Assembly (NCBI GenBank): GCA_003556525.1
Contig: PWRH01000095.1
Location: 1 to 24,805 of the forward strand
Direction of reading: 5' to 3'
Origin: Candidatus Nealsonbacteria bacterium
Lineage (GTDB): Bacteria; Patescibacteriota; Minisyncoccia; Minisyncoccales; RBG-13-42-11
DNA: 24,805 nt
Positions 16,134 through 18,672 of this stretch are shown piece after piece. Under the pieces are notes generated by a model, which saw only the letters and a list, made by a program, of their open reading frames with translations, was not told the DNA's origin and made no database searches. Position 1 is the stretch's first letter. Each line of letters begins with the position of its first letter. A program made the position numbers and the translations under genes.

Positions 16134-17381
16134 CTAAAATAATGTTTTTTGATGGAATAATTTACCTTTCTTTTTAAAAGATGAAACTTTAATTTTACCA
16201 AAAACTCCGTCATAACCGGGCTCTTTTAAAACATCCCCTGCTCTTACTTTAATTATTGAATTTGCAATATCAAACAGGGTTGATTTTTCCAACTCTTCCA
16301 TAGAAGCATTAAGGAGAATATTGAATTCCGGACCGGCTTTTTTTATCAATTCTTCATATCTTTTTTCCACTTCCTTGGTTTTTGTATTGCAATTAAGAGC
16401 GTCCGCTATTATTTCTTCTAAGGGAACCAAACTTTTAAAGGGAATACTGTTTGCCGGCTTAAAACCCTCGGGCTTATCTGCCAATTCTTCCACTCTGTTT
16501 AAAACTCCGACAGTCAAAGGTTTTGCACAAACCGGACAGGTTCCGCTATACTCTTTGGTTTGTTTGGGAGAAGAAATAATTTGGCAAGATCTGTGACCGT
16601 CAAAGTGGTACTTTCCTTCTTCCGGAAAAAACTCAATTGTGTATAAAAATTGCTTTGGATCTTTGTTTTTTATTGCTTGGACTATGTCTTTATAGCTGAT
16701 TTTCGTATTAAAAACATTTGCCTCTCTGCCAATCTTGGCAGGACTATGGGCGTCTGAATTGCTTATCAGGCAAATTTTCCGGCAATCCGGCATTTGCCAG
16801 AGCATGGCCGGGTCGGCGGACAGCCCTGTTTCTCCGGCAAAAATATATTTTGAATATTCTTCAAAGCATTCTTTCAAAGAATCAAAGCCCGATTTTGAAC
16901 CGAATAAAGAAAACCAAGGAGTCATTATATGGGCCGGCACAACCAGGCAGTCTTCTGAAATATTAAAGACAATTTTAACCAGCTCTTTTGCGTCAAGCCC
17001 GAGAATCGGACGGCCATCGGATTTTAAATTACCAATCCGACCAAGCTGGGTGTTAATTTTTTCTACAATAGTAAAACAGGGTGCAAAAATCAAAAGATGA
17101 ATTTTTCTGACTTTGTTTTTAGCGGAATAAATACAGCTTATTTCCGCGGTTAAAAGAAAACGGGTTTCCGATTTTTTATTTTTCAACCTAAACAATCCCT
17201 GTTCAGCCGGCTCCAAATCTTTTTTTAAAGACTTAAACCATTCAGGATGAGAAAAATCCCCGGTTCCCAAAACTTTAATTCCTTTAATATTCGCCCACTT
17301 ATCAAGATTTTCCAAATCCATGTTTTTGGAAGTTGCCCGGGAATATTTACTATGAATATGAAAATCAGCAACAAACTTCAT
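16134..17381 (-). CDS. Endonuclease Q family PHP-domain protein
   Basis: ADFHIHSKYSRATS, GTGDFSHPEW, DGRPILGLD, PAHIMTPW, SNSDAHSP..IGREAN, EEGKYHFDGH..C...CPVC, PGYDGVFG. Confidence 0.88.
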   Translation of the reverse strand: MKFVADFHIHSKYSRATSKNMDLENLDKWANIKGIKVLGTGDFSHPEWFKSLKKDLEPAEQGLFRLKNKKSETRFLLTAEISCIYSAKNKVRKIHLLIFAPCFTIVEKINTQLGRIGNLKSDGRPILGLDAKELVKIVFNISEDCLVVPAHIMTPWFSLFGSKSGFDSLKECFEEYSKYIFAGETGLSADPAMLWQMPDCRKICLISNSDAHSPAKIGREANVFNTKISYKDIVQAIKNKDPKQFLYTIEFFPEEGKYHFDGHRSCQIISSPKQTKEYSGTCPVCAKPLTVGVLNRVEELADKPEGFKPANSIPFKSLVPLEEIIADALNCNTKTKEVEKRYEELIKKAGPEFNILLNASMEELEKSTLFDIANSIIKVRAGDVLKEPGYDGVFGKIKVSSFKKKGKLFHQKTLF

Positions 17382-17644
17382 TCAACTTTATAAACTTTAT
17401 AACCCTCTCTTGCCTTTTCTTTTATTTTCATTCCGACAGAATCTCCCTTTTTCGCCTTTTTTATTTTTTTATGGTCAACCTCCATTGAGCCAACCTTTTG
17501 GCTAAAATCGGTTTCACCACCAACAATCCTGATTTTATCCCCTGCTTCAAGTTTGCCCGAAAGATCAATCACAGCCACTTTAATATTATTGAAATAATGC
17601 GATATTTTTCCTATCAATTTTTCTTTGGATATTTTTTTAGGCAT
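17378..17644 (-). CDS. Small EF-Tu domain II-like / U32 peptidase C-terminal-like beta-barrel protein
   Basis: IGKISHYFNNIKVAVI, L..GDKIRIVG, QKVGSMEVDH..I..AKKGDSVG.K, R.G.KVYK. ATGA overlap with the EndoQ-like gene. Confidence 0.8.
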   Translation of the reverse strand: MPKKISKEKLIGKISHYFNNIKVAVIDLSGKLEAGDKIRIVGGETDFSQKVGSMEVDHKKIKKAKKGDSVGMKIKEKAREGYKVYKVE

Positions 17645-17696
17645 AATTTTAAAAAATAAAATTGTTTTTTTGTTTTAATAAAATGACCTTTAGCTT

Positions 17697-17705
17697 ATTT
17701 TAACA
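17697..17705 (-). promoter_or_regulatory. Extended -10 element for the barrel-EndoQ-mgtE unit
   Basis: TG-T-TAAAAT just downstream of the strong terminator. Confidence 0.4.
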
Positions 17706-17719
17706 TAATTAAATGTATC

Positions 17720-17758
17720 AAAAAACAAAAAATCCCGCGCCCAAAAAAGGGCGCGGAA
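17720..17758 (-). terminator. Strong intrinsic terminator
   Basis: 8-bp all-GC stem CCGCGCCC-TTTTTT-GGGCGCGG followed by GATTTTTTGTTTTTT on the minus strand. Confidence 0.9.
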
Positions 17759-17894
17759 CTTTTAAAGAGGAGGAATTATTTCTGACAAACTTGACATTAA
17801 CTCAAGTCCAGGTGGACATACTGGGCAGCTGCTGTTATAGTCTCCTTTATCAAAAATAACTTGTCCTTTTGGGCAAAAAAACCCTCACCCCCTC
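17725..17894 (-). ncRNA. Candidate structured small RNA of about 170 nt (possibly 6S-like)
   Basis: Has its own promoter and terminator and no intact ORF. Predicted 5' end GAGGGGG pairs with CCTCCTC (17773-17767) just before the terminator; internal helices are present. Confidence 0.45.
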
Positions 17895-17901
17895 AACTAT
17901 C

Positions 17902-17929
17902 AATTTAAAGAAAAAGAAAAATTTGTCAA
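17902..17929 (-). promoter_or_regulatory. Sigma70 promoter for the orphan transcript
   Basis: TTGACA (17929-17924), N16, TAAATT (17907-17902). Confidence 0.6.
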
Positions 17930-17961
17930 ATTTAAGCATTAACTCTTTTTCCCCAGTTTAT

Positions 17962-18672
17962 TCACAAAGGCTGCTTTTTTGCTATAATATAAATATTGGT
18001 CCTTGGGTCTTTCCCGTCCTGCCAAAGTTTTTCCAAACTAAAACCGCTTTTTTTTGCCAAGCCAATAAGGCTTTTTTTGGTAAAGCAATGAAAATACCTT
18101 TGAGCAATAACCTCTTTTTGCGAATTTTTCCAAGAAACAAAAACATCGAAAAAATCCAACTTTGATTTGCCGATAAGTTTTAAAATAAAATATTTTAAAA
18201 TAAGCTTTCTGCCCTCTTTTCTCCTCCAAAAGTCCCAAACTCTTAAAACTAAAAGCCCTTCAGGCTTTAAAACCCTTTCTATTTCCTTTAAATATCTTAT
18301 TCTTAGTTCTTTTGAAGGAATATGGTGTATTACGGAAATACTGAAAACCTTATCGAAAAAATTATCCGGAAAAGGCAAGTTTAAAGCGTCAGTTACTTGA
18401 AAATTTGCTTGAGGATATCTTTTTTTGGCTATTTCGATCAATTCTTTGGAAATATCAATACCAAAATAATCAATTTTTTTGTCTTTTAAGACCTCAAAAA
18501 AGCGGCCACTGGCACAACCCGAATCCAAAACTTTTTCTCCCTCTAAAACATAATCAGCCAAGCCCCTGATATTGTCCGGAATAAAAGATCTGGTTCTTGT
18601 ATAGTCTTGTGCCAAAATATCGTAATCTTTTTCGGTTTGATCCATTATTTTTTTTGCATAATTTAAATTCAT
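17962..18672 (-). CDS. Class I SAM-dependent methyltransferase, Trm9/ALKBH8-like
   Basis: VLDSGCASGRF (motif I), GIDIS, DALNLPF, SISVIHHIP..ELR, LRVW, DVFVSW, RYFHCF. Start reassigned from TTG 18714 to ATG 18672 (MNLNYAKK, 236 aa). Confidence 0.88.
   Translation of the reverse strand: MNLNYAKKIMDQTEKDYDILAQDYTRTRSFIPDNIRGLADYVLEGEKVLDSGCASGRFFEVLKDKKIDYFGIDISKELIEIAKKRYPQANFQVTDALNLPFPDNFFDKVFSISVIHHIPSKELRIRYLKEIERVLKPEGLLVLRVWDFWRRKEGRKLILKYFILKLIGKSKLDFFDVFVSWKNSQKEVIAQRYFHCFTKKSLIGLAKKSGFSLEKLWQDGKDPRTNIYIIAKKQPL

Follow-up and report, generated by a model that had tools for sequence, protein, structure and literature searches.

Palindromic RNA segments mediate homodimerisation in the HIV-1 DIS, in the PAL1 and PAL2 elements of MLV, where the two palindromes adjoin hairpins, and in the self-assembling RNA DsrA. 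Documented examples of RNA homodimerisation have so far come mainly from very large "ornate" RNAs. The CPR/Patescibacteria account for a large share of bacterial diversity; to our knowledge their non-coding RNAs are all but unstudied, and our search of the literature on CPR/Patescibacteria ncRNAs, 6S or SRP found nothing relevant. Among the closest comparisons for the RNA described here are OLE, ROOL and GOLLD, structured non-coding RNAs whose function is unassigned. In these RNAs covariation preserves palindromes, including their adjacent central nucleotides (Kretsch et al. 2025, PMC12286853), and cryo-EM has shown that the palindromic covariation in OLE and GOLLD reflects symmetric intermolecular base pairs (PMC12286853).

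The locus lies on the minus strand of a 24,805-nucleotide stretch of DNA from a Candidatus Nealsonbacteria bacterium, which is referred to here as the window. An earlier note made from this sequence had proposed a promoter, a start, a terminator and paired transcript ends, and we recovered all four on the minus strand at the positions it gave. The sigma-70-type promoter TTGACA-N16-TAAATT (17929-17902) has its -35 hexamer TTGACA at 17929-17924 and, after a 16-nt spacer, its -10 hexamer TAAATT at 17907-17902; the predicted start, near G17894, falls 8 nt past the latter. From here a predicted transcript of ~170-179 nt (17894-17716) comprises a conserved core of ~130 nt (17894-17767), a terminator hairpin and a U tail. 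The intrinsic terminator (17763-17716) consists of a 15-bp stem (17763-17728) that includes 8 G-C pairs, followed by a U-rich tail, and is the strongest in the window, as had been claimed; the runner-up across the whole window has 14 pairs, 6 of them G-C. Among 92 homologous loci, TTGACA is nearly invariant at the equivalent position, and a terminator hairpin of unrelated sequence begins within a few nucleotides of the end of the core in 87. The higher G+C content that the note had remarked on was also borne out (~0.40 in the core, 0.23-0.26 in the adjoining spacer), and the minimum free energy of -65.4 kcal/mol compares with -43.5 +/- 4.1 in 200 shuffled sequences, none of which was as good (z -5.3).

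Promoter, start and terminator enclose a stretch free of ORFs. On the sense strand no start-to-stop ORF of at least 20 codons lies within it, in agreement with the note's reading of no intact ORF, and although stop-to-stop frames reach 40 codons, none has a usable start. One may postulate that the locus is nevertheless a small protein gene, given that the 40-codon stop-to-stop frame contains CPKG...CPVC, or that it is no more than the 3' end (3' UTR and terminator) of the mRNA from the upstream methyltransferase gene, past which this terminator is the first. Both variants seem to us barely credible. The CxxC frame lacks a start codon and is not conserved, most runs of indels have lengths not divisible by 3 (31 and 13 versus 10), and open frames are no commoner than expected by chance. 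A conserved promoter separates the upstream gene from the RNA, and RNA and terminator are also found together behind tRNA-Arg or unrelated genes, so the terminator does not merely serve the methyltransferase mRNA. Long table-11 ORFs occupy the window, which led us to reject a reading of TGA as a sense codon. The locus has the features of an independent sRNA gene, namely a conserved promoter and an intrinsic terminator of its own and no coding signal. On these sequence features, 17894 to ~17720 (minus strand) is a stand-alone gene that carries both a near-consensus sigma-70 promoter and an intrinsic terminator, and from which the transcript is predicted.

We then consider how widely this RNA is distributed. 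The earlier note had allowed for a locus with no conserved homologs; homologues are in fact conserved, with E-values as low as 1e-31, and a covariance model matches the window RNA itself with 124.6 bits (E 1.3e-26). The RNA is single-copy in the source genome. With the covariance model, a single full-length RNA per genome was found in nearly all of the family (25/26 genomes) and in about half of the order (74/151); beyond the order there was one outlier among the remaining genomes of the class and none in a sample of the phylum. Carriers are thus confined to part of one Patescibacteria order, a group of ultra-small bacteria, under the labels Parcubacteria, Nealsonbacteria or Paceibacterota. 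About half of the order lacks the RNA, closed genomes included, which indicates that it is not essential to the lineage. A descriptor search (GAGGGGG...CCCCCTC) of the RNA-negative genomes for divergent homologues gave no match.

The comparison of homologues revealed a fold with compensatory changes at 30/32 base pairs across 92 sequences, counts that overstate the number of independent events because the sequences are phylogenetically related. Paired combinations fill 95.9% of pair cells, compared with 82% after shuffling and ~50% in a slid alignment, and an independent MAFFT/RNAalifold analysis of 14 sequences returned the same helices. The many G-U pairs fix which strand is transcribed. As predicted from this covariation, helix P1 closes the core, which otherwise consists of a small hairpin, P2, and a long arm made up of P3, P4 and P5; P1, P2 and P3 meet in a three-way junction. 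P1, which is the end closure that had been proposed from the single sequence, begins with GAGGGGG (17894-17888); 5/6 modelled pairs have compensatory changes and 99.5% of its cells are paired in the 92 sequences. All three pairs of P2 (17884-17871; GGG, a U-rich loop and CCC) covary, the middle one alternating between A-U (56 sequences) and G-C (32). The 5' strand of P3, a 16-bp stem with compensatory changes at 15/16 pairs, lies at 17861-17846 and is followed by the conserved AAGGAG region (17845-17840; AAGGAGR is conserved at ≥90%), which holds GGA of the internal loop (17845-17843) and GAC, the 5' strand of P4 (17842-17840; 3/3 pairs covary). The P5 hairpin (CCAG/CTGG, 17824-17808) covaries at 4/4 pairs. 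The 3' strands run from 17795 to 17767 in the order P4 (17795-17793), the AAG that faces GGA across the internal loop (17792-17790), P3 (17789-17774) and P1 (CCTCCTC, 17773-17767).

The junction and the P5 loop are joined by a further pairing. GGACA in J2/3 (17866-17862) and TGTCC in the P5 loop (17818-17814) had been noted as a possible hairpin; the pairing is real, but it connects a junction to a hairpin loop and is a pseudoknot. In 89/91 sequences the P5 loop holds the exact complement of the J2/3 tetranucleotide, with four types of compensated variant (GGGC/GCCC, GGAU/AUCC, GGCC/GGCC and AGGC/GCCU). On this comparative evidence, GGAC of J2/3 and GUCC of the P5 loop form a covarying pseudoknot; the contact may be made within one molecule or between two, as covariation fits both. 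Among the other internal pairings suggested earlier, TTGATA/TGTCAA belongs to the long stem, while ACTTGA/TCAAGT and GACAAG/TTTGTC lack covariation support. With its 92 sequences, near-complete covariation of pairs and a pseudoknot, the new family is ready for modelling and searching.

Both strands that flank P5 are self-complementary. Immediately 5' of P5, the junction strand contains pal1, a loop-less palindrome (GCAGCTGC, 17832-17825), and immediately 3' lies pal2 (ACTTGAGT, 17807-17800), which is self-complementary with one U-G pair. A palindrome of at least 8 nt is present at pal1 in 95% of 91 sequences versus 10% in a shuffled null, in 47 distinct versions whose central dinucleotides cover all four self-complementary types (GC 46, AU 16, UA 16, CG 10), so that even the centre covaries. 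The signal at pal2 is weaker: allowing Watson-Crick and G-U pairs, 59% of sequences have at least 8 palindromic nucleotides versus 17% after shuffling, and in ~40% of members the self-complementarity there covers fewer than 8 nucleotides, although pal2 is a perfect 8-10-mer in many members (e.g., GGUUCGAACC, CAAGCUUG and CGAAUUCG). Control regions within the same RNA showed zero excess of palindromes. Self-duplex energies, computed on isolated strands only, were -13.4 kcal/mol for pal1 (shuffles -5.3) and -7.8 kcal/mol for pal2 (shuffles -4.5).

An alternative scenario is that the RNA is real but monomeric, the palindromes being DNA-level sites, either operators bound by a dimeric DNA-binding protein or restriction-modification-type sites within the gene, or else tiny intramolecular hairpins. 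Most versions of pal1 are indeed perfect 6-8 bp Watson-Crick palindromes resembling type II sites (CAGCTG, GATATC, GAATTC, GACGTC), and the sequence varies by genome as restriction-modification specificities do. However, G-U combinations, which would be G-T in DNA, make up 70% of the non-Watson-Crick positions at pal1 and 46% at pal2, against 17% by chance, and U-G pairs are frequent in pal2 (55/282); this enrichment argues for symmetry at the level of RNA rather than DNA. Both palindromes moreover abut P5 at fixed structural positions in every lineage, and an operator for a conserved protein is incompatible with 47 differing sequences. Small hairpins would leave the covariation of two adjacent central nucleotides unexplained, an argument also made for the ornate RNAs' palindromes (PMC12286853). 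We therefore regard a monomeric RNA with such sites or hairpins as unlikely. Because adjacent nucleotides are unable to pair within a chain, pal1 and pal2 each most likely form a symmetric duplex with the copy in a second molecule, and the palindrome-keeping variation suggests an RNA homodimer or oligomer.

The self-pairing reading draws on a working analogy with OLE, ROOL and GOLLD: the feature taken there to mark a homo-oligomeric RNA, a palindrome maintained through its adjacent central nucleotides, is found at pal1 and pal2, where the signature is the same and stronger. In other respects the RNAs differ. OLE, ROOL and GOLLD are 550-830 nt long, use kissing loops of 2-4 bp together with A-minor contacts, and come from Bacillota and others, whereas the window RNA has ~130 nt plus a terminator, two junction strands of 8-10 nt, and a range of one CPR order; oligomers of OLE and GOLLD have been seen by cryo-EM, whereas that of the window RNA is predicted from sequence statistics alone. 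No match to the window RNA was obtained with the OLE, ROOL and GOLLD families of Rfam. The retroviral elements and DsrA are parts of viral genomes or a base-pairing sRNA, and show neither homology to the window RNA nor a comparable scaffold of three-way junction and pseudoknot.

The explanation we find best overall, and consider probable, is a stand-alone RNA gene outside Rfam whose product would combine the pseudoknot with self-pairing. Such an RNA could form a homodimer or higher oligomer in which two intermolecular helices are stacked around P5. More speculatively, it may be abundant and work in trans, as a scaffold or by sequestration, with probable protein-binding surfaces in P1 (G-rich), in the P2 loop (U-rich) and in AAGGAG at its GGA/AAG internal loop. 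The fuller version, which we put forward only tentatively and which may well fail in one or other of its parts, is a self-assembling RNA of ~130 nt, held together by pal1-pal1' and pal2-pal2' helices and possibly by GGAC-GUCC pairing in trans, that would build RNA-only dimers or higher-order rings or filaments and whose production would be wired to DnaA; this last element is, like the scaffold or sequestering role, among the more speculative. Homodimerisation, as predicted by the two covarying palindromes, would be cheap to test. If true, among natural bacterial RNAs whose quaternary structure is evolutionarily enforced it would be the smallest, and the CPR would have their first example; at 130 nt it would offer a tractable model for asking how and why bacteria assemble RNAs into quaternary structures.

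The earlier note had left the choice between a 6S-like RNA and an unrecognised structured ncRNA. A 6S-like RNA would imitate a promoter, binding the sigma-70 RNA polymerase holoenzyme by way of an open central bubble until pRNA synthesis sets it free, and the window RNA is similar to 6S RNA (RF00013) in several ways: its length (~170 nt), termini that pair with one another, an extended helix, a P4-P5 internal loop of ~13 x 13 nt, a strong housekeeping-type promoter and a single copy. The RF00013 model furthermore found no 6S RNA in the source genome as a whole. Nevertheless, RF00013 and the other 6S models of Rfam have no match at 17600-18000 (E ≤ 10) or in 20 other members (E ≤ 0.05). The predicted fold branches at a three-way junction and contains a covarying pseudoknot, unlike an unbranched rod with an open bubble; the helix past the would-be bubble has just 4-5 bp, and both strands of that bubble are selected for self-complementarity, which a mimic of an open promoter does not need. 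The patchy, lineage-restricted distribution, with the RNA missing from half of the order, is also unlike that of 6S RNA. We consider the 6S-like alternative improbable, and it was the other half of the proposal, an unrecognised ncRNA, that conservation, covariation, promoter and terminator upheld.

A divergent version of a universal RNA was likewise considered, since neither SRP RNA nor RNase P RNA was detected in the assembly, RnpA is present, and the G/C-rich paired ends recall 4.5S RNA. For RNase P, canonical type-A RNA (102-130 bits) occurs at other loci in 5/5 relatives, four of which also carry the window RNA, and its absence from this assembly is an assembly gap. For SRP, the models RF00169 and RF01854 had no match in the region, the genome or 61 relatives, and the domain IV-like AGCAGC word sits in the freely variable pal1. 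An SRP RNA would also have no partner, because no SRP54-type GTPase (Ffh, FtsY) was found in the genome or in any relative searched: PF02978 and PF00448 had no match in the source genome, its six-frame translation was free of DTAGR motifs and of P-loop ORFs of the Ffh or FtsY type, and 31 relatives plus closed genomes of the order yielded no credible SRP54 match, only short P-loop matches at or below the cut-off. A universal RNA in disguise is accordingly a reading to which we give next to no credence, and models, fold, partner searches and relatives together led us to reject the 6S, SRP RNA and RNase P RNA identities.

Searches of Rfam as a whole pointed in the same direction. At gathering thresholds only a tmRNA was found in the window and only tRNAs at 20 homologous loci, and an E-value scan of 20 further members (E ≤ 0.05) had no match on the RNA. 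The sole match at the locus, in a 401-nt search, was Listeria rli32 (RF01468; 32.9 bits, E 4e-5), with an alignment that spans the end pairing, the small hairpin, the long stem and the terminator. This score is far below the gathering score of RF01468, 100 bits, and 0/20 other members match; membership was rejected in favour of a chance match driven by architecture and terminator. The Rfam search and homologue comparison that the earlier note had recommended gave no family membership alongside compensation at nearly all pairs, and on this comparative evidence the RNA family is genuine, uncatalogued, non-coding and structured, and lies outside Rfam.

The genes downstream suggest a further alternative, in which the RNA is a cis-acting leader, a riboswitch or attenuator, that controls an operon of a SLOG gene and an EF-Tu-domain-2 gene through the terminator. 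The same two genes follow on the same strand at 43/52 loci, and riboswitches usually consist of a conserved structured domain with a terminator behind it. However, the downstream gene has an extended -10 promoter of its own beyond the terminator, separate from the RNA (TGTTAAAAT, 17705-17697, minus strand), which argues that the RNA is an independent unit; TGnTAnnnT occurs within 150 nt downstream in 78/91 loci, where 25 would be expected. The SLOG ATG lies 6-11 nt past this -10 in 32/37 loci, so the SLOG mRNA is probably leaderless, and as the gene also lacks a Shine-Dalgarno sequence, read-through transcripts would be poorly translated. In a closed RNA-negative genome the syntenic site is empty while the backbone of methyltransferase, tRNA-Arg, SLOG and EF-Tu-domain-2 genes is the same. 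The terminator sequence shows no covariation with any part of the core, and signals for dimerisation in trans are unexpected in a nascent leader. We consider a leader very unlikely, and rejected it because a promoter intervenes and the gene downstream is probably leaderless.

Upstream of the RNA promoter lie two nonamers that resemble DnaA boxes by sequence match to TGTGGATAA (17966-17947, minus strand). TGTGAATAA (17966-17958), with one mismatch, overlaps the methyltransferase stop codon, and TGGGGAAAA (17955-17947) has two mismatches; they start 37 and 26 nt ahead of the -35 hexamer, respectively. Across 91 loci, 47 boxes with at most one mismatch to TTATCCACA occur in 33, compared with an expected 2.2; 45/47 share one orientation, and most start ~16, 27 or 38 nt from the -35. 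Speculatively, a helically phased, promoter-proximal array of this kind in a third of lineages would tie synthesis of the RNA to DnaA status, and suggests that a regulatory RNA may be coupled to replication status in regulator-poor organisms. An origin of replication, another reading prompted by the boxes, was not retained. The RNA locus sits at 48%, 62% and 77% of the length of three contigs that are closed or almost so, with no assumption made as to where the records begin, and we did not find dnaA near it. The RNA locus is also contained in DNA runs from salt- and soda-lake metagenomes.

The stretch from 17894 to about 17720 on the minus strand is a single-copy, independent, conserved and structured RNA gene, and its conservation, covariation, conserved promoter and terminators bear out the reading of an unrecognised structured non-coding RNA put forward in the earlier note. 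The promoter described there, TTGACA-N16-TAAATT, is present on the minus strand (17929-17902; -35 element 17929-17924, 16-nt spacer, -10 element 17907-17902), and the predicted start, G17894, lies 8 nt past the -10 hexamer. The terminator (stem 17763-17728, minus strand; 15 bp with 8 G-C pairs, then a U tract) does rank strongest among the terminator-like sites of the entire window. The RNA stretch is also more GC-rich than its surroundings, as had been noticed (about 40% versus 23-26% in the adjoining spacer), and 179 nt of it fold at -65.4 kcal/mol, whereas dinucleotide-shuffled sequences give -43.5 +/- 4.1 (z -5.3). Within the stretch, start-initiated open reading frames on the sense strand all stay below 20 codons, in keeping with the claim that no intact frame lies between promoter and terminator; the longest noted stop-to-stop frame, 40 codons (CPKG...CPVC), has no start. 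A coding gene is excluded, as the lengths of most indel runs between homologues are not divisible by three (31 and 13 versus 10), and open frames in these sequences are no more frequent than chance.

Homologues, whose collection the earlier note had proposed, do exist. With blastn, 13 genomes from the window's own family yielded stretches of 70-78% identity that cover promoter and core and leave out the terminator. The RNA is present once in the genome of the window. A first covariance model recovered it in full length, and never more than once, in 25 of the 26 family genomes, the sole exception being 85% complete. In the order it was found once each in 74 of 151 sampled genomes, and members of one family agree in having or lacking it. 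As half of the genomes, closed ones included, are without it, the RNA is dispensable at the order level. A rebuilt model, used for the class and phylum samples, detected the RNA in only one class genome outside the order, and the sample from other parts of the phylum gave no hit. That one copy, from a different order (G284:C22:3777-3914, locus L077), scores 126 bits in the same gene context and suggests taxonomic misplacement, a binning error or lateral transfer. Labels of the relatives that carry the RNA include Candidatus Parcubacteria, Nealsonbacteria and Paceibacterota, and DNA of the locus was found in salt- and soda-lake metagenomes.

A comparison with Rfam covariance models (6S, SRP and others) returned for this locus only a match to rli32 of 32.9 bits, below the 100-bit threshold and reproduced by none of 20 other members of the RNA family; no further Rfam family matches. 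The suggestion of a 6S-like RNA is not supported: no 6S model matches, and the fold has a branch point, a pseudoknot and a distal helix of 4-5 bp. RNase P RNA was likewise rejected, canonical type-A genes being found at other loci in 5/5 better-assembled relatives. It is not detectable in the 105-contig assembly of the window's genome, which encodes the RNase P protein RnpA (C77:2746-3069, locus L119), and was probably lost in an assembly gap. SRP RNA was rejected too, as neither RF00169 nor RF01854 matches in this genome or in 61 relatives, and Ffh and FtsY were not found. SRP54-type GTPases (PF00448, PF02978) were not found in this genome, which also has no DTAGR motif in six frames, in 31 relatives and closed genomes of the order, or in 61 class-sampled and 61 phylum-sampled genomes, in a search whose controls scored 14/14. 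Unless the set of genomes itself creates this pattern, the SRP pathway is missing from the whole lineage; our literature search found no paper on such an absence.

The fold is supported by covariation. From 14 sequences aligned with MAFFT, RNAalifold derived 32 pairs, of which 12 show compensatory changes. In an alignment of 92 homologous sequences, 30 of the 32 pairs show both-sided changes and 95.9% of cells hold standard pairs, versus 82% for shuffled and about 50% for slid partners; this larger alignment was fitted to the model, and the separate 14-sequence alignment yields the same helices. Abundant G-U pairs fix the transcribed strand. On the minus strand, helix P1 (17894-17888 with 17773-17767) is the pairing of GAGGGGG with CCTCCTC at the two ends that the earlier note had recognised. 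It is followed by the P2 hairpin (17884-17871), the junction strand J2/3 (AAGGACA, with GGACA at 17866-17862) and the 16-bp P3 (17861-17846 with 17789-17774), then by a 3 x 3 internal loop GGA/AAG (17845-17843 / 17792-17790) inside a conserved AAGGAGR, and by the 3-bp P4 (17842-17840 with 17795-17793). Beyond an A-rich linker come pal1 (17832-17825), the P5 hairpin (17824-17808) and pal2 (17807-17800), which a second linker joins to P4. In 89 of 91 sequences the P5 loop contains the exact complement of the J2/3 tetranucleotide, and since variants are compensated on both sides (GGGC/GCCC, GGAU/AUCC, GGCC/GGCC, AGGC/GCCU), this contact is a covarying pseudoknot.

Both pal1 and pal2 are loop-less palindromes that remain self-complementary as the sequence varies. 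Among 91 sequences pal1 occurs in 47 distinct versions, including GCAGCUGC, GGAUAUCC, GCAAUUGC, GCGGCCGC, GGACGUCC, AUAAUUAU and GAAGCUUC, and many versions of pal2 are perfect 8-10-mers. Palindromes of at least 8 nt are present in 95% of sequences at pal1 (10% of composition-matched shuffles) and in 59% at pal2 (17%); no such excess is seen in two control regions within this RNA. The two central nucleotides of pal1 covary (GC in 46 sequences, AU in 16, UA in 16, CG in 10); being adjacent, they are unable to pair within one chain, and their covariation thus implies that one copy of the RNA pairs with another. Cryo-EM bore out the same reasoning for the kissing loops of OLE and GOLLD (PMC12286853). 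One may postulate instead a palindromic protein site in the DNA; G-U accounts for 70% of non-Watson-Crick positions in pal1 and 46% in pal2, compared with 17% by chance, and pairing at the RNA level is therefore preferred. As isolated strands, pal1 and pal2 have self-duplex energies of -13.4 and -7.8 kcal/mol (shuffled, -5.3 and -4.5). Taken as RNA-level pairing, these patterns strongly suggest that the RNA self-associates via pal1 and pal2. Because both abut P5, a dimer would have two short intermolecular helices bridging two P5 junctions; this arrangement is putative, and the GGAC-GUCC contact may be made either in cis or in trans.

Across homologous loci, the -35 TTGACA is nearly invariant and lies at a constant distance from the conserved GAGGGGG, and a terminator hairpin, differing in sequence from lineage to lineage, begins within a few nucleotides of the core 3' end in 87 of 92. 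An extended -10 element (TGnTAnnnT) lies downstream of the terminator at 78 of 91 loci (25 expected), and in the window right after it (17697-17705, minus strand). Where a SLOG-family gene is next, its ATG stands 6-11 nt past this element in 32 of 37 cases, with no Shine-Dalgarno sequence, which implies a leaderless mRNA made from a promoter of its own. Synteny around the RNA is strong throughout the order: Elp3, a class I methyltransferase, tRNA-Arg(CCG) and the RNA, then the SLOG cluster-4 gene (PF18306, TIGR00725-like), a small EF-Tu-domain-2 protein and an MgtC or PHP/TIGR00375 protein. In a closed genome without the RNA this backbone is intact, tRNA-Arg and the SLOG gene standing only about 90 nt apart, so the synteny belongs to the backbone and is no evidence for a cis-regulatory link. 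The tRNA-Arg(CCG) lies directly upstream on the same strand in most loci (L025-L077), sometimes abutting the -35 element. It is missing from this position in the window, nor was a tRNA found anywhere else in it. A SLOG gene is likewise lacking there, and the next gene is that of the EF-Tu-domain-2 protein. A conserved motif, AAAGGTC(G/A), occurs at 17684-17691 (minus strand) and at the corresponding site of 43 out of 51 loci. It precedes the start codon of an 87-88-aa EF-Tu-domain-2-like gene, in most cases by 23-48 nt, and coincides with or lies close to the 5' end predicted for the mRNA; RNA-less genomes have it as well. Further downstream (16134-17381, minus strand) lies a 415-aa PHP-domain protein (PF13263, TIGR00375 family; N-terminus MKFVADFHIHSKYSRATS), which may resemble endonuclease Q.

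Speculatively, the RNA might be abundant and serve in trans as a scaffold or for sequestration, its duplicated conserved surfaces (P1, the GGA/AAG loop and the P2 loop) perhaps binding a protein. Upstream of the -35 element, 33 of 91 loci have DnaA-box sequences (TGTGGATAA, up to one mismatch), 47 in total, whereas 2.2 would be expected and downstream controls of equal length contain 2. All except two share one orientation (45/47), and they start mostly about 16, 27 or 38 nt before the -35 element, an 11-bp phasing; it is conceivable that DnaA modulates synthesis of the RNA in part of the lineage. Loci with a phased, co-oriented array include L025, L028, L062, L066, L110, L115 and L116. In the window, a DnaA-box-like TGTGAATAA (17966-17958, minus strand) overlaps the stop codon of the methyltransferase gene, and TGGGGAAAA, at 17955-17947 on the same strand, is a weaker match.
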